A stretch of DNA of 35,705 nucleotides from Lachnospiraceae bacterium (GTDB lineage: Bacteria > Bacillota > Clostridia > Lachnospirales > Lachnospiraceae): assembly GCA_024690205.1 (NCBI GenBank), contig JAILCX010000070.1:1-35705 (forward strand). Reading direction: 5' to 3'. Positions 1,411 through 35,705 of the stretch are shown here, one piece after another. The notes below the pieces were generated by a model. The model was not told the DNA's origin and did not search any database. It saw nothing but the letters and a program-made list of their open reading frames with translations. Within the stretch, counting starts at the first letter, position 1. Every line of letters begins with the position of its first letter. The position numbers were made by a program, and so were the translations under genes.

Positions 1411-4248
1411 TCAATCATCGCCCTTTCGGACAACGGTAAATCCACGTCTTTCAAAGAAACGGACTGCTGTATCTCCGCTAACATATTCTGACTTGTCAAT
1501 TTCCGTTCCGTAAGCCTCTTTCCATGCCATGCCCTTGATATGCTTTGCTGGAAGTTCCTCCCCATTATAAACAAGCCATATACTTGAAGGCTCTGGGTAC
1601 TCTGGTCTTTCTTCCAAAAAGCGATCAATAGCTGCCTGAACGTCCTCTGCTGTCACACCCTTCCATGTAGGTTTGGGATTGCATCCAGCCTCTTCACCTA
1701 CAGAATTCAATGCCTCAACCAGGGCATCATACTTGGCAACCATCCACTCATATATTTCTTTCTGTTTTTCGGGATTAAAGATATCCGCCTCTTTTTTGTA
1801 CAATATGCGTTTTGCTACGCTGTTTTCACGGCTCGAATACCAATCAAGCTTATCTCCGAATTTGCTTTCTATGTCTATTTTCTTATCCTCAAGTCTTGCA
1901 AAAGCCTCCGGGGTATATACATACAGAAGTATCGTGATAAACTTACTTCGTGTAATGGTGAACGATATATGGAAGTCTTCAGCTATCGTGCTGATATCAT
2001 ACCAATTCGTGCCTCTTGGATTCCTATATGCGATGTCAGATCCTCGACCATTTTCTCGACAATACTCAACAAAGTCTGTCCAAAACTTTCTCCTTTTATC
2101 ACGAAGGGTTACATCATCATTTGAAGGGTCAAAAATATTTGAAGGATCATCCACCGTTTCACTTTCGGAAGGAGCCGGGAGTTCTGGTGGGATTTCTCGT
2201 CCGTCCACCGCAAACTGAACATAAACTAATCTGTCCATCTGTTCCTGACTAAAGCTAATCTCCCACCTCTGTTCCATGAAACGAAGGAGCTTTTTACTGC
2301 GATCATATATCTTCTTTGCATCCCAATCCTGCTCCTTGGCCACTTCTATCTCGGAATGGGATCCGTTCTCATATCCTCGTCTTCCCTTGTCATTAGAGGT
2401 TTTCTTGTCATAAAAACTTACATTCTGCAAGCTCGAATTAATGCTTTGTGATAACGGGAGGAGATTTCCTAATGCTCCGGCAAGCATCTCTTTCTCATCA
2501 TCATCAAACTGCCTAAACTGATTGCGCCAATAGTAATTAGTATGAGTTTGCGGAAATATGTGTTCAATAGAGACTTTATCCTTCTCATTCTTTGAAAACA
2601 TCTCCCAGCTAATCTTATCAATGTTATTCTTCTTGGCTAACGTATACTCGTACTCATAAAGGAAATACTTAAGATTATATCCCCAGCCATAAAAACCACT
2701 ATGATTGGAAAAGTTCTTCTCTATCTTTGTAACGAAGTTCGGAACGGCATATTCAATGTTCGCATCTGCTTTTTCGCTCAAATCCTTTATCAAATCATCT
2801 ATGCTGATTTCATCAAAATAAAGGCTCCTTGTACAACGATAGTATTCACTGCTCTGATATGATGCGTTGAATCCGCCAAGCCTGAAACAGATGAATATGA
2901 ACCTCTCGATTGCCTTAAACAGTTCTGATCTCTTTTCCGGGGATATCTTCCTTTTGCTGATAGCCACCATGACAAGCGGTCTGAAGTATCCTATTCCCAC
3001 TCTTTGAAGTCGATCCACCCAAATTCTCTCATCGGGCGTAAGGTGTTCACTTGTCATAGGGAAAAAGGTATCATACCAGTATTGTGCCATATCCATGAGG
3101 CTCAATACATAATCAGATATCTCCGTAGGCTGCAGTTTGCTTAAAACCAGCGGTTCTACTTCAACTTCATCATCATCTTGATCATCATCGTCAACATCGG
3201 ACAAAACTTGTGAATCATCTTCTGTTGTAACGGACACCTTTTCAAAGATATTCTTGGCCGAAAACTTACTTAACAAGAATTTGATGTAGTCATCGCCTTT
3301 TCTTCTCGAATATGAATAATACGAGATCCAATGCGCACGAAGGAAATCATCATCTGAAAGCGGCCATTCCTCATTTTTGCCAAGATGATAGTACACCTCT
3401 TTCCAGGCATCATTGATTTTCTTCCTCAAATTGGCCTTTTCAAGTTCATCAAAAGCATCATTCGAATAAAGCGTTGTCAAATAGATAAGGCGGTTCTTCA
3501 ACAATTCGAGATTAGTCAGCTTTTTACCACGATTGTTCATGGTTTCAAATGCCACAAACACATCATAATCATCCGATATTTCATGGATGTTAAACATCAT
3601 CTGCTGGGTCAGTTTTTTATATAAGACAGAAATACCCGCCATCTTCTCCTGCTCATAAAATGACTCGAGATTACTTCTGAAGAAGTTTTTTGCATTTTTC
3701 AGATTTTTTGTGTAGTAAGTTTCATCAACGCTACCAGAATAAGGCTCATTAAAAACACGATAGCGAAGATAATCTGCGCTGGGATTATCAACCTCGTAGC
3801 CAAACAGGTATGTAGTAATAAGATTGTTTGGAGGTCTGTGCCTGCAGATGTATTTTTCGACAACTGAACTCAAAGTATCAAAACCGAGCAAAATCTTATC
3901 ATCTGATAAATCCTTGTTCTCCGGCAGTTCACGGACAAAGCATACCAGTTCGTTTATCAGAATCACAAAAGTGGTCAGCCTCTGCTGCCCATCAACAATG
4001 TGAAATGCCTCATAATCACCACTATCGATTAGCCAAGTATCCGTACCCCATCCGCTTGTATCCTTTTTGGATAATGCCTTTAAGGATAGCATCCCTGTAT
4101 AGTGATACTTATCTTCTTGTAGATTCACAAGGTCATCCCAAAAATCTATCAATTGAGACTGCTGCCATGCATATCCTCTCTGATAGTCCGGGATACGAAA
4201 TACCCTGTGTGAAAACACTTTTGATAGTTGCTGTAGCTCGTTTGCCAT
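1411..4248 (-). CDS. GmrSD-family type IV (modification-dependent) restriction endonuclease: DUF262 (DGQQR) plus DUF1524 (His-Me finger), with a C-terminal DUF4268-like extension.
   Basis: The N-terminal region has IPDYQRGYAW and HIVDGQQRLTTF (the DUF262 DGQQR motif). The middle region has SIEHIFPQ ... LGNLLPLSQSINSS (DUF1524 HNH-like motifs). The tail has RRKFWTDFVEYCRENG (DUF4268-like). Start is re-set to ATG 4246-4248 (MANELQQLSKVF), which has a GGAGG RBS 5 nt upstream. The ORF-track 5' extension to 4305 overlaps the upstream gene. Confidence 0.85.
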   Translation of the reverse strand: MANELQQLSKVFSHRVFRIPDYQRGYAWQQSQLIDFWDDLVNLQEDKYHYTGMLSLKALSKKDTSGWGTDTWLIDSGDYEAFHIVDGQQRLTTFVILINELVCFVRELPENKDLSDDKILLGFDTLSSVVEKYICRHRPPNNLITTYLFGYEVDNPSADYLRYRVFNEPYSGSVDETYYTKNLKNAKNFFRSNLESFYEQEKMAGISVLYKKLTQQMMFNIHEISDDYDVFVAFETMNNRGKKLTNLELLKNRLIYLTTLYSNDAFDELEKANLRKKINDAWKEVYYHLGKNEEWPLSDDDFLRAHWISYYSYSRRKGDDYIKFLLSKFSAKNIFEKVSVTTEDDSQVLSDVDDDDQDDDEVEVEPLVLSKLQPTEISDYVLSLMDMAQYWYDTFFPMTSEHLTPDERIWVDRLQRVGIGYFRPLVMVAISKRKISPEKRSELFKAIERFIFICFRLGGFNASYQSSEYYRCTRSLYFDEISIDDLIKDLSEKADANIEYAVPNFVTKIEKNFSNHSGFYGWGYNLKYFLYEYEYTLAKKNNIDKISWEMFSKNEKDKVSIEHIFPQTHTNYYWRNQFRQFDDDEKEMLAGALGNLLPLSQSINSSLQNVSFYDKKTSNDKGRRGYENGSHSEIEVAKEQDWDAKKIYDRSKKLLRFMEQRWEISFSQEQMDRLVYVQFAVDGREIPPELPAPSESETVDDPSNIFDPSNDDVTLRDKRRKFWTDFVEYCRENGRGSDIAYRNPRGTNWYDISTIAEDFHISFTITRSKFITILLYVYTPEAFARLEDKKIDIESKFGDKLDWYSSRENSVAKRILYKKEADIFNPEKQKEIYEWMVAKYDALVEALNSVGEEAGCNPKPTWKGVTAEDVQAAIDRFLEERPEYPEPSSIWLVYNGEELPAKHIKGMAWKEAYGTEIDKSEYVSGDTAVRFFERRGFTVVRKGDD

Positions 4249-4259
4249 AATGCCTCCGT

Positions 4260-4619
4260 CTAATTCATCAACTCTTGCATCCGTTTGATGATCATATTGA
4301 ACCATCGCATTGACTCTTCATCCCGGATGCTCTCACCCATAGCCCAATGATTGTAATACCGCCACTGCGAGAATATGGCGGATCCCAATAGCTGAATATC
4401 GTCAATGGAATCGATGACCTTCTCCAGGGCATCTGGATTCCTAAAAGCGTCATGACCGTACTTCTCCTCGAAGGCATGACCGCAGTCCATGTCAAAGCCG
4501 AGGTCTCTGAAACCATCTCCGATGGCGGGATCATCGACTATCTGAATATCCGGCACGTTGCTATCATTCAGCATATCCGCAAATTTGCTTATGTACTCGC
4601 TTATCTTTTTATTAACCAT
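4260..4619 (-). CDS. Hypothetical 119-aa protein, first gene of the GmrSD operon.
   Basis: ORF MVNKKISEYISKFADMLND... with its stop 11 nt before the GmrSD start. No recognisable motif and a weak RBS. Confidence 0.5.
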   Translation of the reverse strand: MVNKKISEYISKFADMLNDSNVPDIQIVDDPAIGDGFRDLGFDMDCGHAFEEKYGHDAFRNPDALEKVIDSIDDIQLLGSAIFSQWRYYNHWAMGESIRDEESMRWFNMIIKRMQELMN

Positions 4620-6760: not shown

Positions 6761-9010
6761 TTAATTTATTTTCTCCAATCTGGCGAATGCGGCATACATT
6801 ATCTTGGTGCCGTGATCGTCAAAATCCACGGTGACTTTATAATCTCTCGGACCCGATTCCATATCCGTGACTGTTCCCTCACCGAATTTAACATGACGGA
6901 CGCGGTCTTCCACATCATAATCGGGTTTGGATCCGGGTACTGCCTTTTGTGAAGAAGGAACACCTTTGCTAATCCCTGCTGCCTTAAGAGAATCAAGTCC
7001 TCCTCCGAAAGGAACCGGTGGCTTAACAGATCTTTCTTTTCGACCCGTGGATGAACGGTCCTCAAAAGAAGTCCTTTGATGAACCCTGTTATCCATAAGC
7101 GCCTTTGGTATTTCCTCTATGAAGCGGCTTACCGCATTAAACTGAAGTTCTCCTCTTACCAGGCGTGTCTTTGCGCAGGTTAAGGTCAGATCCTCTTTTG
7201 CCCTTGTAATACCGACATAAGCAAGCCTTCTTTCTTCTTCAACAAGCGTAGGATCGTCTTCCGAAAGAGACATGATACTCGGGAAAAGACCGTCTTCCAT
7301 TCCCGCAAGATACACGTTCTTAAACTCAAGACCCTTTGCAGAATGCAGTGTCATAAGCATTGCCCGGGGTACAGATGAGTCAACTTCATCTATATCCGCC
7401 ACTAACGCAACTTCCTCAAGGAGGCTCCTCAGTGATGCATTCTCATTGTTTTTCTCAAAATCTACCACCTTGTTCAGGAACTCTTCAACGTTCTCTATAC
7501 GGCTCTGATTCTCGTCGCTTGAGTCCGCTTCAAGCTCCGACATATATCCGGTAACATCGAGCACTTCCCTGATAAAATCGACAAGCCCCATGTTCCCGGC
7601 ATCTTTCCTTAAGGCATTTATCATATCGGCAAAGTCTTTAAGCTTTGACGATGCTTTGGCTATTGTGGGTATCTCATCGGCAATACATAGGGTATCAAAG
7701 AAGCTTGATCCATGCGACTGGGCATACTCAGTCACCTTTGATATCGTCGTGTTACCTATTCCCCTTTTGGGCACGTTTATTATCCTGCGTACCTGCAGAT
7801 CATCCCTTCCGTTATCGATGGTCTTAAGGTAAGCAAGTACGTCCTTTATCTCTTTTCTTGAATAGAAGTTAACACCACCCACCACGTTATACGGGATGCC
7901 TTCGTAAATGAACTTTTCTTCTATCAGTCTGGACTGTGCGTTCGTTCTGTATAAAACAGCCGTATCCGAAATATCCAGATTTTCCTTGCGCTGCTTTCTT
8001 GCGATGTCATCCGCTATGAATTCAGCCTCTTCATAAGCATTTTCAAACTGTCTGAAGTGGATGAGCGGTCCGCCGTCTTTTTCAGTCCAAAGACTCTTTG
8101 CTTTTCTTCCCTTGTTGTTGGAGATCACGGCATTTGCGGCATCAAGTATGTTTTGAGTCGAGCGGTAGTTCTGCTCGAGCCTTATAACCTTTGTATCAGG
8201 ATAATACTGCTCAAAATCAAGTATATTCCTGACATTTGCACCGCGGAATTTATATATGGACTGATCGTCATCTCCGACTACGCACAGATTTCCGTCATGT
8301 CCGGTAAGGAGCCTTATCAGTTTAAACTGCGAAGTATTGGTATCCTGGTACTCATCGACCATGATGTACTTAAACTTCTTTTGGTAGTTATCCAAAACAT
8401 CAGCTTCGTTTTCAAGCAACAGAACTGTGTTCATGATAAGGTCGTCAAAGTCCATGGCATTGTTCTTTTTGAGGATCTTCTGGTATTCGGTATATGCCTG
8501 TGCGATCCTCTTTAATCTGTAATCCTCGCCATATCTCATCATGTATTCGTCAGGTGCAAGCAGCTCGTCTTTAGCCGAAGATATCTCATTAAGGATGGTC
8601 TTTTCCTTAAGCATCTTAGTGTCTATATCAAGGTTTTTGCACACATTCTTCATTACGCTCTTTGAATCATCGGCATCATAGATCGTAAATCCGTTATCGT
8701 ATCCCAGTCTGTCGGCAAATCTCCTTAATATCTTTACGCAGCTGCTGTGGAACGTTGCTATCCACACACTCTCCGAGCCATAGCCCACAAGCTTGTCAAC
8801 TCGTTCTCTCATCTCGCCGGCGGCTTTGTTTGTAAAGGTTATCGCCATGATGTTGTATGGCTCGACATTCATTTTGTCGATAAGATAAGCCACCCTGTGG
8901 GTAAGGACTCTTGTCTTTCCGGAGCCCGCACCCGCAAGTACCAGTACTTTTCCTTCTGTTGTAAACACAGCCTCTTTTTGCTGCGGATTTAGCGTATCGT
9001 ATATCGACAT
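6761..9010 (-). CDS. pcrA: ATP-dependent DNA helicase PcrA (UvrD/Rep superfamily 1).
   Basis: LNPQQKEAV, Walker A AGAGSGKT, and helicase motifs (TFHSSC, VDEYQDT, VGDDDQSIY, YRSTQNIL, GIPY, MTLHSAKGLEF, VGITRAKE). C-terminal Tudor-like tail. Confidence 0.9.
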   Translation of the reverse strand: MSIYDTLNPQQKEAVFTTEGKVLVLAGAGSGKTRVLTHRVAYLIDKMNVEPYNIMAITFTNKAAGEMRERVDKLVGYGSESVWIATFHSSCVKILRRFADRLGYDNGFTIYDADDSKSVMKNVCKNLDIDTKMLKEKTILNEISSAKDELLAPDEYMMRYGEDYRLKRIAQAYTEYQKILKKNNAMDFDDLIMNTVLLLENEADVLDNYQKKFKYIMVDEYQDTNTSQFKLIRLLTGHDGNLCVVGDDDQSIYKFRGANVRNILDFEQYYPDTKVIRLEQNYRSTQNILDAANAVISNNKGRKAKSLWTEKDGGPLIHFRQFENAYEEAEFIADDIARKQRKENLDISDTAVLYRTNAQSRLIEEKFIYEGIPYNVVGGVNFYSRKEIKDVLAYLKTIDNGRDDLQVRRIINVPKRGIGNTTISKVTEYAQSHGSSFFDTLCIADEIPTIAKASSKLKDFADMINALRKDAGNMGLVDFIREVLDVTGYMSELEADSSDENQSRIENVEEFLNKVVDFEKNNENASLRSLLEEVALVADIDEVDSSVPRAMLMTLHSAKGLEFKNVYLAGMEDGLFPSIMSLSEDDPTLVEEERRLAYVGITRAKEDLTLTCAKTRLVRGELQFNAVSRFIEEIPKALMDNRVHQRTSFEDRSSTGRKERSVKPPVPFGGGLDSLKAAGISKGVPSSQKAVPGSKPDYDVEDRVRHVKFGEGTVTDMESGPRDYKVTVDFDDHGTKIMYAAFARLEKIN

Positions 9011-10230: not shown

Positions 10231-11541
10231 TTATTGAGCATCAGAGTCGTCAAAAACATCTCCGCACTCAGGGCAGAACTTCGGAGGATGTGTAGGATCC
10301 TCGGGAGTCCATCCGCACTTGTCACACTTGTATAAAGGTGCACCGGCGGGTTTCTTTGCTCCGCACTCAGAGCAGAACTTGCCGAGATTTCCGGTCTTTC
10401 CGCATGAGCATGTCCATCCCTCCTCGGGTACCGGTTGAGGCTTTCCGCACTCGGCACAGAACTTACCGGTGTTTCCGGTCTTTCCGCACGAACATGTCCA
10501 TCCCTCTTCCTTGGGTGCTCCTACTACGGGAGCAGGAATAGGTGTTCCCTGCGCCTGCTGGTATACGGGTGCGTTTGCACCTGCCATGTTAGCCATGTTC
10601 ATTCCGGCAAAAGCCATAACAGGGCCGGCAGCGGTATTTGAAGCAGCTGCCTGCATAGCAGAAGCTGTAGCTCCGGTCATCATACCCTGTCCGAGAGTCG
10701 GATTTGAAAGGGCAGCTGCTCTCTGGAGCTCTTTTATCATGTTCTCGTCTTCTTCGGATGCCTTTAATGTGTTGACACCGAATGAAACGATCTCTATTCC
10801 TCTTAAGTCTCTCCACTGATCTGAGAGCTCTTCGTTAAGTGCGTTTGCAAGTTCCTTTGTATGTCCGGGAACGGCTGAATATCTGATACCCATCTCTGAA
10901 ATTCTTGCAAATGCAGGCTGAAGAGCTGTAAGAAGCTCTGTCTTTAACTGAGAATCGATCTTGTCTCTTGTATATTCATCAGTTACATTGGCACATACAT
11001 TTGTATAGAAAAGGATGGGATTGGTGATCCTGTATGAGTACTCACCGTTACATCTTATTGAAATGTCAACGTCAAGTCCTATACGGGCATCAACGACTCT
11101 GAAAGGAACGGGATTAGCCGTACCGTATTTGTTTCCGATGATCTCCTTGGTGTTGAAGAAATAGATCCTCTGATCCTTTCCCGTATCTCCGCCAAAGGTA
11201 ATCCTCTTACCCATTGTCTTGAATGACTCGAGGATGCTTGTTCCGAGATTTCCTGAAAAGATGGAAGGCTCGGTAGACGTATCATAAGTAAATTCACCGG
11301 GCTCAGCACAAAGCTCAACGACCTTACCCTGATCTACTATGATCATGCACTGTCCGTCGTTAACTGCGATCACCGAACCGTTAGTAATGATATTATCCTG
11401 TCCTTTGTTGTTCCCCTTTGTTCTCTTTTGGCCTTTGGTAACAAGAACGTTCGCATCCATTGAATCACAGTAGAAATACTCTTTCCACTGATCTGAAAGC
11501 TGCGAGCTGACTCCGCCAACCACTGCACTAATAAGTCCCAT
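10231..11541 (-). CDS. SPFH/band-7 (stomatin-prohibitin-flotillin) family protein with a C-terminal array of zinc ribbons (COG4260 / YdjI-like).
   Basis: 436 aa with a GGAGGTG RBS. The globular N-terminal 300 aa has the architecture typical of PF13421-type SPFH proteins. The C-terminus has three tandem GWTCSCGKTGNxGKFCxECG ribbons plus CDKCG..CPECG. Confidence 0.65.
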   Translation of the reverse strand: MGLISAVVGGVSSQLSDQWKEYFYCDSMDANVLVTKGQKRTKGNNKGQDNIITNGSVIAVNDGQCMIIVDQGKVVELCAEPGEFTYDTSTEPSIFSGNLGTSILESFKTMGKRITFGGDTGKDQRIYFFNTKEIIGNKYGTANPVPFRVVDARIGLDVDISIRCNGEYSYRITNPILFYTNVCANVTDEYTRDKIDSQLKTELLTALQPAFARISEMGIRYSAVPGHTKELANALNEELSDQWRDLRGIEIVSFGVNTLKASEEDENMIKELQRAAALSNPTLGQGMMTGATASAMQAAASNTAAGPVMAFAGMNMANMAGANAPVYQQAQGTPIPAPVVGAPKEEGWTCSCGKTGNTGKFCAECGKPQPVPEEGWTCSCGKTGNLGKFCSECGAKKPAGAPLYKCDKCGWTPEDPTHPPKFCPECGDVFDDSDAQ

Positions 11542-25249: not shown

Positions 25250-25289
25250 AAGTCAATGGCAAGTCAATGGGGACGGTTCTCTTTGACTT
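25250..25289 (+). repeat. GGGGACGGTTCTC-core repeat, locus 1. Single arm with a partial duplication.
   Basis: AAGTCAATGGC + AAGTCAATGGGGACGGTTCTCTTTGACTT. The full copy is itself a 7-15-7 inverted repeat (AAGTCAA ... TTGACTT). Confidence 0.7.
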
Positions 25290-26357: not shown

Positions 26358-27092
26358 ATGAAGAAGTCATTGAGAACCGTCCCCTTTGTCACGTTGGTTA
26401 TGTTGGTGTTGTTGTTAAGCGGATGCCGAAAGGCTGAGGCACCTGCTCAGGAGCCTGTGGCCGCAGTTGAAGAAAAAAAGGCTGATACAGCAGCTGAGAC
26501 ACCCGTACCGACTAAGGCTCCGGTTGTTGAAAAAGAAACCAAGGAAGAAACCGAGGTTAATAAATCCGAAGAAGAAAAAACCGACACTTCCGAACCCGCC
26601 AAAGAAGAGACCGCTGATCAGGCAGAAACAGATAAGGATTCCGCAAAAACAGGATCCGATGATGCAGCAAAGGCTGAAGAAAACAAAGCAGAAGAAAGCC
26701 AAACTAATGCGGTTGCTTTAAAAGATGTATACAACAAGATTGCAGGAAGCGTTGCTCTTCCCGAAATGTATTTTGCGGATGCAGGCTTTTTGATGAACTA
26801 TTACGGTATTGATGCTTCCAAACTTGAAGATTATGTTTTTGCTTCATGCCTTGATTCAACCTCAGCAGACTCCATCATCCTCATGAGATTAAAAGATGAA
26901 TCTTCTGCAGACGAAGTCATCGGTGGCCTTAACATGCTCCTTGAGCAGATGAGCATAGAGCTTGAAAGCTACAATCCCGAAGCCAATGAACTTGTAAAAG
27001 CCGCTAAGGTAAGACGTAACGGCAAAAACATTGACCTCATCATACATAAGGACAGAAACACAATATTGTCTGTCATAGACAGCTCATTATAG
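26358..27092 (+). CDS. Lipoprotein with a long E/K/T-rich low-complexity linker and a DUF4358-like C-terminal domain.
   Basis: Lipobox LLLSGC. The acidic linker spans ~26450-26700. The C-terminal domain (ALKDVYNKI...MYFADAGFLMNYYGID...SIILMRLKD) resembles DUF4358, which is commonly encoded beside MBOAT/DltD-like genes in Clostridia. Confidence 0.55.
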   Translation: MKKSLRTVPFVTLVMLVLLLSGCRKAEAPAQEPVAAVEEKKADTAAETPVPTKAPVVEKETKEETEVNKSEEEKTDTSEPAKEETADQAETDKDSAKTGSDDAAKAEENKAEESQTNAVALKDVYNKIAGSVALPEMYFADAGFLMNYYGIDASKLEDYVFASCLDSTSADSIILMRLKDESSADEVIGGLNMLLEQMSIELESYNPEANELVKAAKVRRNGKNIDLIIHKDRNTILSVIDSSL

Positions 27093-27104: not shown

Positions 27105-28547
27105 ATGGTTTTTTCAGGTCTTCCTTTTTTGATCTTTTTTCTGACAACTCTCATTCTTTGTTATTTTCCACTGGGAGCTGTCTTTAGGCGCATAAATATT
27201 CGATCCGGCATTGAAGTCAGAAACGGTATACTTCTGATTTTCAGCTTGTTTTTTTATGCATGGGGTGAGCCTAAGTGTATCTTTTTGCTCATCCTGTCTT
27301 CTTTTGTCGATTATATGGATGGTCTTCTTTTGGAAAGATTTGACGACCGTCCTGCACTGAGAAAACTTTTCCTCTCTGTTTCTTTGATCATCAATTTTTC
27401 GCTCCTTGGAGTAATGAAATACTCCGACTTTGTTGTAGGTACTTTAAATTCTCTTACCGGAGCGGGCCTTACTCTTCCCGGGATCGCCCTTCCCATCGGC
27501 ATAAGCTTTTATACATTCCAGACTACCAGCTATTCTATAGATGTATACAGACGCGAAGTAAAGGCAGAGCGGAATTTCTTCCGTTACCTTACATACATTT
27601 CGATGTTCCCCCAGCTTATCGCAGGTCCCATCGTACGTTACTCACTTATCAAAGAACAACTTGTATCAAGAAAGACAACTTTAGACAGTTTTTCCAGCGG
27701 TCTTCGCCGTTTTCTCATGGGACTTTTCAGAAAAGTCCTTATAGCCAACGAGCTTGGTGCGTTATGGGATCATCTAAGAGGTGTACAGAACCTTTCCGTT
27801 ACCGGAGCATGGCTTGGATTTCTGGTTTTCACCTTACAGCTTTATTATGATTTCAGCGCATATTCGGATATGGCCATCGGCCTAGGTCTTATGCTCGGCT
27901 TTCACTTTAACGAAAACTTCATCTATCCGCTTTCGGCTGTATCACTGACTGACTTTTGGAGACGCTGGCACATCTCTTTGTCTAGCTGGTTCCGTGACTA
28001 CGTTTATATCCCTCTTGGCGGAAACAAAAAAGGAAAGCTACGGCAGCTTCTTAATCTTGCGATAGTATGGTTCCTCACGGGACTTTGGCACGGCGCATTC
28101 TGGAATTATGTTCTTTGGGGAATCTATCACGGAACGATACTTGTCCTTGAAAAATTCATCTGGGGAAAGCATCTTGAAAAAGCGCCCCGGCTCGTAAGAC
28201 ACCTTTATACTTTGCTTATCGTGATCTTCGGATTTGGAATATTCTATTTTGAAGACATGAACGCATTAACACAGTATCTTACCTTTTCATTCGGAACAGC
28301 CGGCAATGCTCTTTTGGGAAATGAATTATTATGGGCGTTTGGCAATTACCTTCCGGTCCTTATATTTGCGATCCTTTTCATGTTCCCGGTCTTTCCGAAG
28401 ATCAGGGATTACATCCATACACTCGGAGAGAAAAAAGAAAGCATCGCACGTTTTGCGGCCGGATCACTCTCCGTTTTACTGCTGATACTTTGCATAGCAA
28501 ACCTTGTAAGAGATTCCTTTAACCCTTTTTTGTATTTCAGGTTTTGA
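27105..28547 (+). CDS. MBOAT-family membrane-bound O-acyltransferase (AlgI/DltB-like).
   Basis: Multi-TM protein. The invariant MBOAT His block is FWRRWHISLSSWFRDYVYIPLGGN. Confidence 0.85.
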   Translation: MVFSGLPFLIFFLTTLILCYFPLGAVFRRINIRSGIEVRNGILLIFSLFFYAWGEPKCIFLLILSSFVDYMDGLLLERFDDRPALRKLFLSVSLIINFSLLGVMKYSDFVVGTLNSLTGAGLTLPGIALPIGISFYTFQTTSYSIDVYRREVKAERNFFRYLTYISMFPQLIAGPIVRYSLIKEQLVSRKTTLDSFSSGLRRFLMGLFRKVLIANELGALWDHLRGVQNLSVTGAWLGFLVFTLQLYYDFSAYSDMAIGLGLMLGFHFNENFIYPLSAVSLTDFWRRWHISLSSWFRDYVYIPLGGNKKGKLRQLLNLAIVWFLTGLWHGAFWNYVLWGIYHGTILVLEKFIWGKHLEKAPRLVRHLYTLLIVIFGFGIFYFEDMNALTQYLTFSFGTAGNALLGNELLWAFGNYLPVLIFAILFMFPVFPKIRDYIHTLGEKKESIARFAAGSLSVLLLILCIANLVRDSFNPFLYFRF

Positions 28548-29764
28548 TGATAATGAAAAAACACTCTGTTAAAGATCTGATAAAATACATACCCGAATTT
28601 GCTGCGATCACGGTTTTGTTTGCGTTTGCAGTCATGTTCATGCTCTCATACCAAAAGGAGTTTTCCGAAAACGAAAACCGCGTCTTAGCCTCATGTCCCG
28701 CTCCTTCTTTGGATGGCATTTTCGATCACTCATTCATGGATTCCTTTGAGGATTATATATCGGATCAGTTTCCTTTAAGAGATGACCTTTTATCTTTTTC
28801 TGTCATCGCATCAAGAGCAGAAGGCAAAAAAGAAGTAAACGGAGTGATCTATGCCAAAGAAGGTCCTGATAACATCCGTCTCATCGACCGATACAACAAG
28901 CCTCAAAACGCTGACAAGTTCATAGATGCCGTAGCCAGATTAAAAGATGGAGTAACCTCAGCCGATATCACGGTAATGGTCGTTCCGACTTCATACTGGT
29001 TATATGAAGATGAAATGCCCAAAACGACCCTTAATACAGAACGTCCGCTTCAAAAGGACACTTTAAAATACATTAATGACGGGATAGACAACCTGGGCGC
29101 ATCAACTAAGGTTAATATGGTTGATAACATATTTGACCGCCTTACGGACGGCCGAAAGGCAGGTCTCAACATCTTTTACCGGACCGATCATCACTGGACA
29201 ACAAGCGGTGCCTATATGGGGTATCTTGCGCTTTCGCCATACCTTATGCTTCCCGAAAGAAAAGATCTCCTTTCAAATCTTACATGCATCAGCGATTCCT
29301 TTTACGGCACGACATGGTCAAAAGTCGTTGACCGCTCTGTTAAACCTGACACGATGGATATATATGATTCACCCGAATGGAAAGACCATCTTACGGTAAC
29401 ATATGAAAATACCGGCGAGTCTTTTAATTCTCCGTATAACCGCGATTATCTTAATGTCAAAGATAAGTATTCCGTTTTCCTTAATAACCAGCATTCCCTT
29501 ATTACCATAAAGAACGAAAATGCCGACCTTACAAGAACTGATGGGGAGGAGCATCGTGCGCTTGTTGTGATAAAGGACAGCTATGCTAACTCCCTTATCC
29601 CGTTCCTTATCGATCATTATGAGACCATATGGGTATTCGACCCAAGATATTACAGAGGCAGCATAACCGAATGGATAAATGATCATCCCGAAGTTAAAGA
29701 TGTCCTTGTGCTTTATAACCTTTCCACCATGGATAACGACAGAGGCCTTGGTGCGATATACTGA
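28547..29764 (+). CDS. DltD/AlgJ/AlgX-like O-acyltransferase accessory protein (DHHW family).
   Basis: ATG 28547 overlaps the MBOAT stop in a TGATGA arrangement. N-terminal TM anchor. Signature YRTDHHWTTSGAYMGY (the DHHW motif of the AlgJ/DltD family). Confidence 0.7.
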   Translation: MIMKKHSVKDLIKYIPEFAAITVLFAFAVMFMLSYQKEFSENENRVLASCPAPSLDGIFDHSFMDSFEDYISDQFPLRDDLLSFSVIASRAEGKKEVNGVIYAKEGPDNIRLIDRYNKPQNADKFIDAVARLKDGVTSADITVMVVPTSYWLYEDEMPKTTLNTERPLQKDTLKYINDGIDNLGASTKVNMVDNIFDRLTDGRKAGLNIFYRTDHHWTTSGAYMGYLALSPYLMLPERKDLLSNLTCISDSFYGTTWSKVVDRSVKPDTMDIYDSPEWKDHLTVTYENTGESFNSPYNRDYLNVKDKYSVFLNNQHSLITIKNENADLTRTDGEEHRALVVIKDSYANSLIPFLIDHYETIWVFDPRYYRGSITEWINDHPEVKDVLVLYNLSTMDNDRGLGAIY

Positions 29765-29768
29765 TAAC

Positions 29769-29850
29769 AAGTCAACGGGGACGGTTCTCTTTGAACCTGT
29801 TCTCATTGGGTTCAATGGGTAAGTCAAAGAGAACCGTTCCCGTTGAGCCT
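29769..29850 (+). repeat. GGGGACGGTTCTC-core repeat, locus 2. Convergent inverted pair able to form a ~23-bp-stem hairpin with a 29-nt loop.
   Basis: Arm 1 (29772-29794) is TCAACGGGGACGGTTCTCTTTGA. Arm 2 (29824-29846) is TCAAAGAGAACCGTTCCCGTTGA, which is the reverse complement with 1 mismatch. The loop contains a small nested hairpin GAACC-N11-GGTTC. Confidence 0.75.
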
Positions 29851-29887
29851 GAACCCACCATTGTGTTTTAGTAGAAAGAGGTGCCGA

Positions 29888-31534
29888 ATGACCAAAAGAC
29901 TCACAGCCGTTTTACTAACGATCAGCCTGGCATTTAGCAGCACGGCATGTTCTGCCGAAGAAGTTAAAGGCAAGGCGGACTCCGCTAAAAATTCCATAGA
30001 AAAAGCTGCCGACGAAGCGGCCGATACGATCGGAAAAACAGCATCTGACGTATCCGAGGTTGTTAGTTCCAAAGCAGCCGAGGCTGTCGGATATGCTTCG
30101 GAATGGTACTCAAATATCGATACGGCAAAGTTTAAGCAGGGCTGGAATTACTCGGTTGAGTTCCTGGGCGAAAAGTATTCGGAAGCGGTAGACAGTGAAT
30201 ATATCAGATCCGTTGCGGAAAATATGGCAAAGATACGCTCCAACATGGAAAGCGCATCTTCCGCTCTCATAGATTCTGCAATCGACAAAGAACAGCTTGC
30301 AATGAAGTGGGCAACGGAAACCTATTCCGACGTTAAAGATGCAAGCCTTGAGATGATCGAAGAGAACTCTTATCTTAAGTACTTTTCGTCTGCTGATAAG
30401 GAAGCATCAAAGGAGGCCATGAACCTTCTTGTATCCTATTATGATTACGCCCGGCAGATGTCATCGCCCGTTGAACTTAAGGATTATATTGATGATTTCT
30501 GTGCCAAAGAAAGCGCTGATCTTAATGCCTTATATAAATCAGTTCTTAATGATCAGGAGCTTATAATTCCTGATGAGCAAATGCCCGGCACCATCGCCTA
30601 TATCACCGGCATATCGGACAAAATGCCCGGGGAAACTCAATCAAAATTCCTTTCCAAGGATTCCCTTTACGAACGCACGGTAAAATCCCTTAAGAAAAGA
30701 TATGAAGATAACAGTTTAAGTGAAAGCAAGGCTCCCACAGCGGCAGAGATAATCGCACTTGCTCAGTTGGCCGAGGAAGGAACCTTACAGCCTTCTGATT
30801 TTAACGTATCGGTATCAACACTCCTTTGCCCCAAATACGTTCTTAAACAGGCCTGCTATTCCGTTTCCGGAATGTCAGATTTTGATGATGTTGTTAATAT
30901 AGGTTCAAGTGTCTATTCCATACTGAAGGAAGCGGCATCCGATGGGCATATAGATACCGACGCTCTCAAAAAGGGGGATATGAAAACTGTTCTGGCTTCA
31001 TCCGACGGTTTTGTTGAAGGTTCGGTAAGTCAGTTTGTTATATCGGGATGCAGAGAAGGAAACTGGGGAGAATATATAAAAGATGATCCTTCCCTTTGTG
31101 CCGTGATCTCGGTTCTCGTCATTGATGGAGCAGTAATTGGATATGATCTTTGCCGCGGCGATATCACACTTGACGAATACGGAAACATGATGGCGGACAT
31201 GCTCTTTACGTCACTGCTTTCCCTTCCTACAAACGCGGTCGTTATCGCGCTTTTACCTTCTTTGTATATGACGGCTCTTGCAGGCTCCATGGCCGGCGTG
31301 ACTATGGTTGCTCTCGGATATGAAGATTCGGAAGCTGCAAAGAGCGCGATGCTTGATGTTGTAAACGGCGGAGGATTTGAGGCATTTGTTCCCGCAGGAA
31401 CTACCGAAGCCATAAGCGTAGCCAAAAGCAAGATAGAATCTCTAAGCATGAAAAACAAGATCTCATCATTTAAAGATACGATGATATCAACCACCAAAGA
31501 GGGATACATCAACATAGAAACGATCCCCGATTAA
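29888..31534 (+). CDS. Hypothetical 548-aa lipoprotein of unknown function.
   Basis: Start re-set to ATG 29888 (MTKRLTAVLLTISLAFSSTAC lipobox), with an AGAGGTG RBS. The ORF-track start is upstream. The C-terminal third contains hydrophobic/Gly-rich segments. No family recognised. Confidence 0.6.
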   Translation: MTKRLTAVLLTISLAFSSTACSAEEVKGKADSAKNSIEKAADEAADTIGKTASDVSEVVSSKAAEAVGYASEWYSNIDTAKFKQGWNYSVEFLGEKYSEAVDSEYIRSVAENMAKIRSNMESASSALIDSAIDKEQLAMKWATETYSDVKDASLEMIEENSYLKYFSSADKEASKEAMNLLVSYYDYARQMSSPVELKDYIDDFCAKESADLNALYKSVLNDQELIIPDEQMPGTIAYITGISDKMPGETQSKFLSKDSLYERTVKSLKKRYEDNSLSESKAPTAAEIIALAQLAEEGTLQPSDFNVSVSTLLCPKYVLKQACYSVSGMSDFDDVVNIGSSVYSILKEAASDGHIDTDALKKGDMKTVLASSDGFVEGSVSQFVISGCREGNWGEYIKDDPSLCAVISVLVIDGAVIGYDLCRGDITLDEYGNMMADMLFTSLLSLPTNAVVIALLPSLYMTALAGSMAGVTMVALGYEDSEAAKSAMLDVVNGGGFEAFVPAGTTEAISVAKSKIESLSMKNKISSFKDTMISTTKEGYINIETIPD

Positions 31535-32973: not shown

Positions 32974-34326
32974 TTATTCCTCCTTGTTTCCGCAATTACC
33001 GCAGAACTTCATTCCTTCAGCAAGTTCTGCTCCGCACTTGGAACATACTCTCTTTGTCGGTCCCACCGGAGTTCCGCAATTACCGCAGAATTTCATTCCG
33101 GCAGGTACCTCTTGTCCGCAGTTTGCACAGATAACCTTGGGAGGTTCTACATTGGCTCCGCATGAACCGCAGAACTTCATTCCGGCAGGTACCGTAGCTC
33201 CGCATACGGGACATGCAATGTTTCCGCCTGCTGCTCCCTGGGTAAAGAGATTGTTCATCATTGCTCCGGCAGACTGGCCTACTGAATTACCCATACCGAG
33301 CCCCAATCCTGCCTGCATGAACATAGCTCCATCTCCTTCGTTGGAAACGGCAGCCTTCATGATCTCTGCAGCTTCCTGTCTCGCCCAGCCGTTGTTTCCG
33401 TCTTGATCCCTTATCTTCATACGTTCGTAGTCAGCGTAAGCGCCCTGACCTGAAACATAACGGTCCTTTTCTGCGCCTTCACGCTCAAGGCCGTACTGTA
33501 CTCTGGTATCGAGTATCTCCTGTTCACGGTCAAATTCTCTTTCCTGACGAGACATCTTCATTTCGAGCATACGCTTCATGTAAGGATCATTATCAGGAAT
33601 CTGAATATTCTCTATATAGAAATTGATAAGCTCAAGGCCATACTCTGCAAGAACTTCGTTAAGAGGCGCTTTCAAAGAATCGGCAAGCGCCTTCTTTCTG
33701 TTAATAACAACGATAACCTCTTCATCACCGCCTGCAAGATAAGCTGCAAGTTCATCCGTTATGTTTTGCTTGAAAGCAGTCTTAAAGCTGTTTTTAACAG
33801 ACTCTTCGGTGATGTTTTCGGCTCTTCCTGGAGCAGTCTGAAGCGAGCCGCCATGTCCTCCGACGAGTTTTAAGAAGAACTGCTTAGAGTTGCTGACAGC
33901 AACGGTATATGCACCTCTTGCAGAAACAGTAAGGACAATACCTGATCTGGGATCTACAACCTTGATGGGATCGCTGGTTCCCCACTTCATCTCAAGGTGA
34001 TGGCCCTTGTTGATAAAATATACTTTACAGTTAAACGGACTCTCGCCTCCTGAAAGCATCTTTGAAAGGAACTTTGTAAGGAAAGGATAGTTCTCCGTTG
34101 TAAGAGTATACTTTCCCGAAGTAAAGACTTCTTCAATGATACCGTCCTTCATGAAGAGCGCTTCTTCATACTCGGCAACTATAAGCTGAGCACCGTTATT
34201 AAAATCTTCATTCGGAACCTTGTAACAGATCTCGCCGTTACGGGCGTTGTTCTTAATGACGCTTAAGATAGGATTTGAGGGTTTTTCGGAAGAATCCCCC
34301 AGAATTTTGTCTAAGCCAAAAGCCAT
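32974..34326 (-). CDS. SPFH/band-7 family protein with C-terminal tandem zinc ribbons (COG4260 / YdjI-like). Paralog of the gene at 10231-11541.
   Basis: AAGGGG RBS. Four C-terminal repeats of the type CPVCGATVPAGMKFCGSCG. Same overall architecture as the 10231-11541 protein. Confidence 0.65.
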   Translation of the reverse strand: MAFGLDKILGDSSEKPSNPILSVIKNNARNGEICYKVPNEDFNNGAQLIVAEYEEALFMKDGIIEEVFTSGKYTLTTENYPFLTKFLSKMLSGGESPFNCKVYFINKGHHLEMKWGTSDPIKVVDPRSGIVLTVSARGAYTVAVSNSKQFFLKLVGGHGGSLQTAPGRAENITEESVKNSFKTAFKQNITDELAAYLAGGDEEVIVVINRKKALADSLKAPLNEVLAEYGLELINFYIENIQIPDNDPYMKRMLEMKMSRQEREFDREQEILDTRVQYGLEREGAEKDRYVSGQGAYADYERMKIRDQDGNNGWARQEAAEIMKAAVSNEGDGAMFMQAGLGLGMGNSVGQSAGAMMNNLFTQGAAGGNIACPVCGATVPAGMKFCGSCGANVEPPKVICANCGQEVPAGMKFCGNCGTPVGPTKRVCSKCGAELAEGMKFCGNCGNKEE

Positions 34327-34479
34327 AATATTACCCCTTCATAATCATAGTTTTGAAGTTTTTATTATTTAAACACCTCATATTAAATGATACCTTAATG
34401 AAGCTTTAAAAACAACAATTATTTATGCACTTGTCCGAGCCTGTTTCCTTTGATAAAATCAATGAACATGAAGTCTTTG

Positions 34480-34562
34480 AAGTCAATGGGGACGGTTCTC
34501 ATTGAACCCATTCTCATGAGAGGTCAAAGAGTAAGTCAAAGAGAGCCGTCCCCATTGAACCC
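34480..34562 (+). repeat. GGGGACGGTTCTC-core repeat, locus 3. Convergent inverted pair forming a hairpin.
   Basis: Arm 1 (34483-34505) is TCAATGGGGACGGTTCTCATTGA. Arm 2 (34536-34558) is TCAAAGAGAGCCGTCCCCATTGA, which matches the reverse complement at 21/23. A partial extra copy GAAGTCTTTGA immediately precedes it. The loop contains the palindrome TCTCATGAGA. Confidence 0.75.
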
Positions 34563-34593
34563 GCCATTATGTTTTAGGGGAAAGAGGTGACAA

Positions 34594-35475
34594 ATGATCA
34601 AACGACTCGCAACCGTTTTACTCACGATATGCCTGGCATTTAGCATCGTGGCATGTTCAGACGAGGAAGTTAAGGACATTTATGCTCCGCCAGTTAGGAT
34701 TGAAGAAATCGATTCCGTTTCGAAAGAATCCCCTTTGCCAAAACAAGCATCACAAGAAGAAGCCAAAAGCGAGCCCCTGATCTCCACCCCGGAAAAGCAA
34801 GGGGAACCGGTTGGACAAATAGCCGAAAACAATAAAGAGAAGCAACCCGGCGAAAAGGAAGACACCAAGGTCGAAGAAATATCCGACGACCGTTCTCAGG
34901 AAAAAGCAGAAAAGCAAACTGAAGCGACACCGACACCCGAAACAACACCTGAACGGTCGCCCGAAAAACAGCGAATCCTCTTTGTCGGGGATTCAAGGAC
35001 TATCGATATGTTTGCGGATTCAGACGAGACCTTATCAGGCGCCGTACATGACGGCATAACCGTCTATGCAAAGCATGGCTACGGCTTTGACTTTATGAAG
35101 GAGTCGGTAAACAGTTTCGGCACCGATAATTTTGACATCCTTATAAGCTGGATGGGAGCCAACGATCACGGAAACTTTGACTCCTACAGAAGCTACTATT
35201 CATCTTTGATAGAAAGCGGAAAGACCGTAATACTTTGCACGGTCGGACCGACCGATGATGAGCATCTTGTTTCATACGACCATCCGAACTATGAGAACGT
35301 GATGATGCTAAAATATAACGAATCTCTTCTTTCCTTTGCAAAAGAAAAAGGTATAAAAGTCATCGACCTTTATACCTATATTTCAAATAACATTTCTATC
35401 GATCCTGCCGACGGGATCCATTATACTCCCCGTCCGACAACTTCCATCTGGAACTATATCCGTTCCATGATCTGA
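34594..35475 (+). CDS. Lipoprotein with a C-terminal SGNH/GDSL hydrolase domain and a long acidic/proline-rich linker.
   Basis: Lipobox LAFSIVAC. SGNH block I is ILFVGDSRT. Block III is GANDH. Block V is DGIHYT. Confidence 0.75.
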   Translation: MIKRLATVLLTICLAFSIVACSDEEVKDIYAPPVRIEEIDSVSKESPLPKQASQEEAKSEPLISTPEKQGEPVGQIAENNKEKQPGEKEDTKVEEISDDRSQEKAEKQTEATPTPETTPERSPEKQRILFVGDSRTIDMFADSDETLSGAVHDGITVYAKHGYGFDFMKESVNSFGTDNFDILISWMGANDHGNFDSYRSYYSSLIESGKTVILCTVGPTDDEHLVSYDHPNYENVMMLKYNESLLSFAKEKGIKVIDLYTYISNNISIDPADGIHYTPRPTTSIWNYIRSMI

Positions 35476-35514
35476 TCACCAATTCATTCCTGGGCAAATA
35501 CTCTCATTTTGGGG

Positions 35515-35543
35515 AAGTCAAAGAGAACCGTCCCCTTTGAACC
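35515..35543 (-). repeat. GGGGACGGTTCTC-core repeat, locus 4. Single arm on the opposite strand.
   Basis: Reverse complement reads GGTTCAAAGGGGACGGTTCTCTTTGACTT. This is identical to the locus-1 core over 21 nt. Confidence 0.7.
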
Positions 35544-35563
35544 TAATGAGTGCAATGAAGCAT

Positions 35564-35705
35564 TAATGTCTGAAAGTTATTTCGCCTGTCACATCATCCA
35601 TGGCATCAACGATCGCCAAAGACTCTACTCTTATGCCCTTTTCTCTAAGGCGCTTGCCTCCGTCCTGGAATCCTTTTTCAATGATGATCCCGACGCCCTC
35701 AAGGG
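35564..35705 (-). CDS. 3' end of an unidentified gene running in from the right edge (partial).
   Basis: The reverse complement translates as ...[46 protein letters not shown], with the stop codon at 35564-35566. Too short to assign a family. Confidence 0.35.

Follow-up and report, generated by a model that had tools for sequence, protein, structure and literature searches.

The window analysed here, a complete contig of 35,705 bp from a Lachnospiraceae metagenome-assembled genome (MAG), carries two genes on its forward strand that begin almost identically. Gene A encodes a predicted lipoprotein in which no Pfam family was found, whilst gene B encodes an SGNH/GDSL hydrolase. Each is preceded by a long hairpin built from a dispersed, REPIN-like repeat, followed by a leader with a Shine–Dalgarno site and then by the codons of a lipoprotein signal peptide (Table 1). 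The two copies of this 5′ block lie 4.7 kb apart in direct orientation. The contig is a singleton, and exact look-ups of A, B and two neighbouring genes returned no other contig.

Alignment of copy A (29769–29971) with copy B (34480–34677) using MAFFT, with matches counted segment by segment, gives an identity of approximately 80 % with abrupt limits on both sides. Homology sets in exactly at AAGTCAA (29769 and 34480), the 60 nt upstream of the copies matching at 47 %, which is the random level. It then runs through the left hairpin arm (27/29 nt identical), the loop (16/24), the right arm (25/29), the leader with its Shine–Dalgarno site (26/32, plus an indel of 6 nt) and codons 1–28 (69/84 nt), before falling to 53 % over the next 84 nt. 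Within this region, an ungapped block of 123 nt (29850–29972 against 34556–34678) contains 102 matches, compared with 31.1 ± 4.9, and a maximum of 51, for the same block elsewhere in the window, every position and both strands included. These values bear out the proposal of the first-pass annotation that a nucleotide-level duplication stands in front of two unrelated genes, as identity is above 55 % and both hairpin and leader are shared upstream of the coding region. Likewise, the mature parts of the two proteins are unrelated as judged by BLASTP (E-value 4.5), in keeping with the same annotation. Its description of identity through about 28 codons followed by an abrupt stop is right about the stop but needs adjusting as to position: the last AAG GAC of B's block is also present in an allele of B that lacks the module (contig L048, described below), and the A-derived identity ends at codon 26–27, within GTT AAG G (approximately 34670–34675).

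Table 1. Coordinates of the duplicated 5′ block, the genes that carry it and the further repeat arms (window positions)
Feature	Position	Strand	Details
Solo arm	25261..25289	-	precedes the first SGNH gene of the MBOAT/DHHW operon by approximately 100 nt
Arm in DUF4358 lipoprotein gene	26363..26391	+	codons 3–11 (MKKSLRTVPFV...), 20/23 to consensus
Hairpin A, REPIN-like doublet	29769..29849	+	left arm 29769–29797, loop 29798–29820, right arm 29821–29849
Leader A	29850..29887	+	Shine–Dalgarno GAAAGAGGTG at 29874–29883
Gene A codons 1–28, donor copy as read from the comparisons in the text	29888..29971	+	lipoprotein signal peptide MTKRLTAVLLTISLAFSSTAC plus SAEEVKG
Gene A (MCR4991049.1)	29888..31534	+	predicted lipoprotein of 548 amino acids
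Promoter-like site TTGTCC-17-TAAAAT with upstream TG	34431..34459	+	consensus match only
Fossil of B's former 5′ end	34450..34479	+	TTG ATA AAA TCA ATG AAC ATG AAG TCT TTG
Hairpin B, copied REPIN-like doublet	34480..34561	+	left arm 34480–34508, right arm 34533–34561
Leader B	34562..34593	+	Shine–Dalgarno GAAAGAGGTG at 34580–34589
Gene B codons 1–28	34594..34677	+	signal peptide MIKRLATVLLTICLAFSIVAC plus SDEEVKD
Gene B (MCR4991053.1)	34594..35475	+	293 amino acids, acidic linker, SGNH/GDSL hydrolase domain
Solo arm	35515..35543	+	40 nt past the stop of gene B

As read from the sequence, the signal peptides have the layouts MTKR-LTAVLLTISLAF-SSTA-C in A and MIKR-LATVLLTICLAF-SIVA-C in B. Lipoprotein signals of the PROSITE type combine a basic n-region and a hydrophobic core with a lipobox Cys located within the first 15–35 residues, and both peptides fit this rule. 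Hairpin A begins 5 nt past the stop codon of a DHHW/AlgX-like gene (28544–29764), and gene A may be co-transcribed with the SGNH/DUF4358/MBOAT/DHHW operon. Folding energies are −54.4 kcal/mol for hairpin A (z −5.6) and −46.8 kcal/mol for hairpin B (z −5.4), with the Shine–Dalgarno site unpaired in both predicted folds. Function as intrinsic terminators was rejected for the hairpins, as neither is followed by a U run (the 3′ sequences being TGAACCCACCATTG for A and CGCCATTATG for B) and a consensus scan made no call for the full structures. A promoter, TTGAGC..TTTTAG, within the leader was similarly dropped, because the 6-nt indel alters its spacing between A and B. Searching the whole window against Rfam 15 gave no match at gathering scores, and a permissive scan produced only sub-threshold matches of a chance type.

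The former state of gene B can be seen by comparison with its closest relative, P0021, which is encoded on a contig of 2,966 bp (L048) whose flanks are almost the same as those of the window (149/150 nt identical on the left, 97 % on the right). No repeat arms are present in L048. The P0021 gene starts at the position matching window 34450, and encodes a hydrophobic anchor, MIKSLDMRSFKERKKQKTIRFAAGISAAVFLCLLASFFITRAISSG, ahead of the linker. The homologue of its codons 1–11 survives in the window immediately before hairpin B as the fossil listed in Table 1, from which an open reading frame (ORF) of 46 codons now continues through the hairpin to a TGA at 34588–34590, inside the Shine–Dalgarno site. 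This stop overlaps the new ribosome-binding signal, and 3 nt separate it from the ATG of B; the two frames could conceivably be coupled in translation. Homology between B and P0021, in both protein and DNA, resumes at KD, straight after the module. Overall, some 197 nt from A stand in place of about 102 nt of B, with junctions that display only 3–7 nt of microhomology, the left one having AAG and the right one G(T/G)TAA(G/A)G. The promoter-like site upstream of the fossil is identical in L048; from its match to consensus, transcription is predicted to begin a few bases ahead of hairpin B, so that the hairpin would form the 5′ end of the mRNA.

When window 34312–35705 is set against L048 1–2966, the B locus proves hypervariable, with flanks that are 96–100 % identical and a catalytic domain that has diverged, such that 29/58 four-fold sites differ between B and P0021. 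L048 additionally harbours a zinc-ribbon gene of 577 amino acids where the window has the solo arm downstream of B, and both contigs end at the same base (window 35705, L048 2966). From the deep divergence of the catalytic domains between near-identical flanks, it follows that the locus holds old recombining alleles, and on this comparison it is within one of these that the copy of A's 5′ end was received.

With regard to direction, these sequences show copying from A to B on several grounds. A-family homologues, at 32–40 % identity (32–37 % for the 11 full-length examples), are all lipoproteins, and their N-termini align with A unbroken through the signal peptide and the following 'CS.E.(V/A)K..A', meaning that the signal peptide and first mature residues of A match those of its own family. 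Homologues of B, on the other hand, have very heterogeneous N-termini and anchors. Together with a module-less B in L048, the survival of its start as a fossil in the window and the resumption of B/P0021 homology at KD, this marks A as the source. The other loci of the two families that were compared lack synteny, namely L044–L047 of the A family, which also have no arm and no leader, and L049 and L050 of the B family. Divergence between the copies is approximately 0.18 in the leader and at each of the three codon positions alike, which looks neutral, the leader being no better conserved than the rest of the module. By this measure, roughly 0.2 substitutions per site, the copy is fairly old.

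The leader and signal peptide appear to be confined to A and B. A 30-column profile, searched exhaustively with HMMER against 1.84 billion protein representatives, recovered only these two (E-values 1e-15 to 1e-17) and one further weak, generic match with non-homologous DNA, and a word-indexed protein search with a 40-residue signal-peptide profile found nothing. BLAST of leader plus signal peptide against 41 loci that carry the repeat returned none, module matches stopping at the right arm, whilst two metagenome scans, one for the leader pattern and one for a 22-mer taken from the conserved flank of B, gave 0 each. A candidate third copy of the signal peptide, P0005 (E-value 5e-4), was discarded, as its leader is non-homologous and its codons are different. 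Hence the idea of a recurrent shuffling cassette with further copies finds no place in the 1.84 billion representatives, the 41 loci or the two metagenome scans. What survives of the module shuffling suggested by the first-pass annotation is that the expression and export module of one gene was moved onto an unrelated cargo, as L048 keeps B without it.

The hairpins, by contrast with the leader, recur elsewhere. Their unit is an arm, a quasi-palindrome of 26–29 nt (AAGTCAAnGRGRACSGTYCYCnTTGA), and each hairpin is an inverted doublet of arms. The window contains seven arms, all between 25264 and 35540, where shuffled sequences give 0. Three of them (at 25264, 26367 and 35518) lie outside the two hairpins, and so the hairpin is not a dedicated leader of genes A and B but one member of a dispersed family. 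The basic n-region of a third lipoprotein signal peptide is provided by the arm within the DUF4358 gene, which is full-length; this arm and the one at 25261 lie on either side of the first SGNH gene. At three sites (25250–25272, 29808–29830 and 34520–34545), the first 10 nt or so of the arm are partly repeated directly before it, as in AAGTCAATGG-C-AAGTCAATGGGG.

A scan for the arm motif, covering one genome per species, located it in 41 loci. Every one of these comes from rumen Lachnospiraceae or Butyrivibrio, the sources being AD3010, AC3007, XPB1003 and a number of MAGs. Across the sequences examined there are 105 arms, with '-+' doublets (24, spaced 34–60 nt) as the prevailing arrangement and solo arms besides; 58 of the 73 arm groups (solo, doublets and clusters) are intergenic, and many begin 2–60 nt past a stop codon. 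The same hairpin family adjoins genes as unrelated as those for ABC-F, UDG, MGMT, MgtE and racemase proteins, mostly at their 3′ ends. Alignment of 23 doublets, hairpins A and B included, yields a consensus stem of 24 pairs in which columns 10/84 and 24/70 covary, with spacers that are each palindromic despite differing in sequence. Two derived characters, TTGAACC arm ends and a long loop, unite hairpins A and B and are lacking in the other 21 aligned members, and therefore the hairpin was, as judged from these characters, copied along with the leader and signal peptide. A scan of viral contigs for the arm produced 2 matches, which is chance level, and a full-text literature search with the core sequence of the repeat found nothing relevant.

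Inspection of the ORFs bracketed by arms revealed a transposase gene in AD3010 (L009, JHWU01000010.1, 844–1587), a genome other than that of the window. Its product of 247 amino acids is a Y1_Tnp protein (PF01797, 57.4 bits against a cutoff of 23) for which the best NCBIfam model is NF047646, REP-associated tyrosine transposase (RAYT), at 49.5 bits. Within the region 620–1680 of this locus, arms flank the gene at 666–694 and 1589–1617, and it is the only RAYT-like gene among the 41 loci. A phmmer search with an approximate IS200 TnpA sequence as query found no match. By homology and position, the hairpins belong to a repeat family with a RAYT-like Y1 transposase in rumen Lachnospiraceae. In XPB1003 (L035), a unit of approximately 330 nt bounded exactly by arms is duplicated at 2273–2613 and 7501–7801 with 86 % identity; it consists of an arm, a ribosome-binding site, an ORF for a membrane protein of about 85 amino acids and a second arm, and similarity ends at the arms. 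In L026 (3755–5070), two REPIN-like doublets bracket small DNA-repair genes of the UDG-family and MGMT/YjbR types in a cassette-like layout.

The explanation favoured here, with a probability of roughly three in four, is that, in a single local event, the neighbouring SGNH gene B had its 5′ end replaced by a segmental copy of that of lipoprotein gene A. The copied piece would comprise the REPIN-like hairpin, the leader with its Shine–Dalgarno site and the first 26–27 codons, which encode a type II signal peptide, the lipobox Cys and five or six mature residues. In exchange, B would have lost about 34 codons for a basic-plus-hydrophobic signal anchor, and would now be translated from the copied Shine–Dalgarno site and ATG. 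Its product is predicted to take the lipoprotein pathway and to be held by a lipid instead of a helix; the linker and catalytic domain outside the membrane would be unchanged, and the hairpin at the 5′ end may possibly act as a stabiliser of the mRNA.

The copy has its left breakpoint right at the outer end of the repeat, where a random breakpoint would be expected to fall only a few per cent of the time. This position suggests that the repeat probably determined the breakpoint. Together with the arm-bounded duplication in XPB1003, it points to one of two routes of copying, namely mobilisation of the RAYT type that was imprecise and continued into the flanking DNA on the 3′ side, or a switch of template when replication stalled at the palindrome. 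Recombination between homologous hairpins, which the first-pass annotation had named as a possible recombination substrate, finds no support because the ancestral-type allele has no hairpin at the site and the junctions possess so little microhomology. A broader idea, that REPIN-like doublets act as ends for RAYT-driven mobilisation of adjacent DNA, is unlikely, although several observations fit it: arms bound the duplicated unit of L035 and both edges of the hypervariable B segment, one lies at the left end of the A-to-B copy, and another sits inside the signal-peptide codons of the third lipoprotein.

Several considerations tell against this account of a single copy from A to B. Of this MAG, the DNA search covered the 35.7-kb contig, and a third copy elsewhere in it is conceivable. 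L048 is the sole comparison contig with the module-less state, and, on their divergence, B and P0021 are old alleles between recombined flanks rather than a simple before-and-after pair. No genome beyond this MAG has gene A in the present context, leaving the donor locus with no outgroup. A and B are taken as putative lipoproteins from a reading of the lipobox. The window itself contains no RAYT or other recombinase, and the RAYT-like protein of AD3010, at 49.5 bits, scores below the NCBIfam equivalog cutoff of 80.

Other accounts of the shared block fare less well. Were hairpin, Shine–Dalgarno site, ATG and signal peptide a portable export cassette, A and B would be independent, in-frame insertions of one mobile unit, and the coincidence of the left limit with the repeat's outer end, the gene-sized unit bounded by arms in L035 and the arm within another lipoprotein's signal-peptide codons would all be in character. 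However, no instance of this leader or signal peptide comes after any of the approximately 100 arms or doublets in the 41 loci, no other protein among the 1.84 billion representatives has the signal peptide, and in A that peptide, like the first residues of the mature protein, is native to the family; independent insertion is therefore very improbable. A shared cis-regulatory leader, kept alike as a 5′ stabilising hairpin or as the site of a common regulator of envelope genes, is unlikely but has more to commend it, given that A and B are both envelope-related and stand beside the MBOAT/DHHW/SGNH operon, that all seven arms of the window fall within 25.2–35.5 kb, that the predicted promoter puts hairpin B at the 5′ end of the mRNA and that the Shine–Dalgarno site is unpaired. 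Yet the leader, at 26/32, and the codons, with equal change at all positions, show no conservation beyond neutral expectation within the block, the hairpin family is found next to unrelated genes and mostly at their 3′ ends, and there is no Rfam match. Moreover, such selection would explain the retention of the block and not its origin.

It is also conceivable that A and B always possessed related signal peptides, with their 5′ ends kept alike by gene conversion, which a spacing of 4.7 kb in direct orientation would favour. Such old paralogy sits badly with the closest relative of B, which at the same locus has neither lipoprotein signal peptide nor hairpin, with the fossil of an older start that is still present in the window, and with the heterogeneous N-termini of the B family, and we regard it as highly improbable. 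An assembly artefact, in which the MAG was joined through repeated hairpins, deserves mention as the window is metagenome-assembled and contains repeats, but merits almost no credence. The copies differ at 18 % of sites and so are not collapsed repeats, the arms are at most 29 nt long, the reading frame of B passes unbroken through the junction with P0021-type sequence resuming at once, and an independent contig, L048, confirms both flanks.

Among known systems, the repeats most resemble the REP/REPIN–RAYT elements described in Pseudomonas and Escherichia (PMC3116915, PMC3337134, PMC5581495), and their doublets match the REPIN anatomy of arms and compensated spacers (PMC3116915). The likeness extends to short imperfect palindromes, inverted doublets that form long hairpins, conserved arms around a variable, compensated spacer, and solo arms, to a mostly extragenic location, often just after stop codons, and to restriction to one lineage; it also takes in a Y1 (IS200-like) transposase gene flanked by repeats in L009. 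There are nevertheless differences. The host here is a Clostridia lineage, a group in which Group 1 RAYTs have been reported but are weakly associated with repeats (PMC5581495). The RAYT-like protein falls below its NCBIfam cutoff and was seen in a related genome, AD3010. A GTAG-type head sequence is a feature of proteobacterial REPs, and no such head is visible in the arms of the present family.

The arrangement of the duplicated block itself recalls the vpma genes of Mycoplasma agalactiae and the vsp genes of M. bovis, in which a conserved 5′ untranslated region and signal peptide precede variable mature lipoproteins (PMC2268961). In both cases the leader and signal-peptide codons are alike in DNA before unrelated mature sequences, but here there are two copies only, at 82 % identity and in direct orientation, each with its own expression signals, and the window displays no site-specific recombinase and no sign of switching. 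Phase-variable families of this kind comprise several clustered genes whose expression a site-specific recombinase switches at recombination sites. The Correia/NEMIS elements of Neisseria are palindromes of about 100 nt that are co-transcribed with neighbouring genes and can alter their expression. Although the present elements are palindromes of a similar kind, Correia/NEMIS elements are of the DDE type, whereas neither the doublets nor the arm-bounded units in L035 show a target-site duplication at their ends, and the associated enzyme is a Y1 rather than a DDE transposase. Integron attC sites and the Vibrio cholerae repeats are imperfect palindromes of 57–90 nt whose outer cores carry an invariant AAC...GTT. 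The present repeats likewise are imperfect palindromes lying between small accessory genes, as they do in L026 and L035; a reading as attC sites was nonetheless rejected, as the AAC/GTT position is variable (C–G in 8/23, U–A in 6 and U–G in 4). No integron integrase was detected in the window or in the examined ORFs of the loci.

Elsewhere in the window, two SPFH (Band_7_1) paralogues (10231–11541 and 32974–34326, both on the reverse strand) have 3′ ends that carry direct repeats with a period of 84 nt, belonging to the repeat families D4 and D5. Those of 32974–34326 encode Pfam zinc-ribbon domains, whilst none is reported for 10231–11541 at E ≤ 1e-5. A GmrSD-type restriction endonuclease with a DUF4268 domain is encoded at 1411–4305, also on the reverse strand.

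Taken as a whole, the duplication is a known kind of gene remodelling, and neither a new system nor a genome-wide cassette; no long-standing question is opened by the A-to-B copy or by the repeat family. It does, however, provide a well-resolved natural case in which the anchor of a secreted enzyme was changed from a hydrophobic N-terminal segment to a lipoprotein signal through the copying of some 200 bases from a neighbouring gene, with an allele of the 'before' type and the fossil of the old start both visible. In addition, the analysis uncovers in rumen Lachnospiraceae a REPIN-like family that has a RAYT-like transposase. If this repeat had a part in placing the breakpoint, elements of its kind would be more than genomic clutter, namely a source of 5′-end remodelling. 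Should RAYT-driven mobilisation of adjacent DNA prove true, domesticated REPIN/RAYT elements would re-tool N-terminal export signals and shuffle small accessory genes in a Gram-positive gut lineage.

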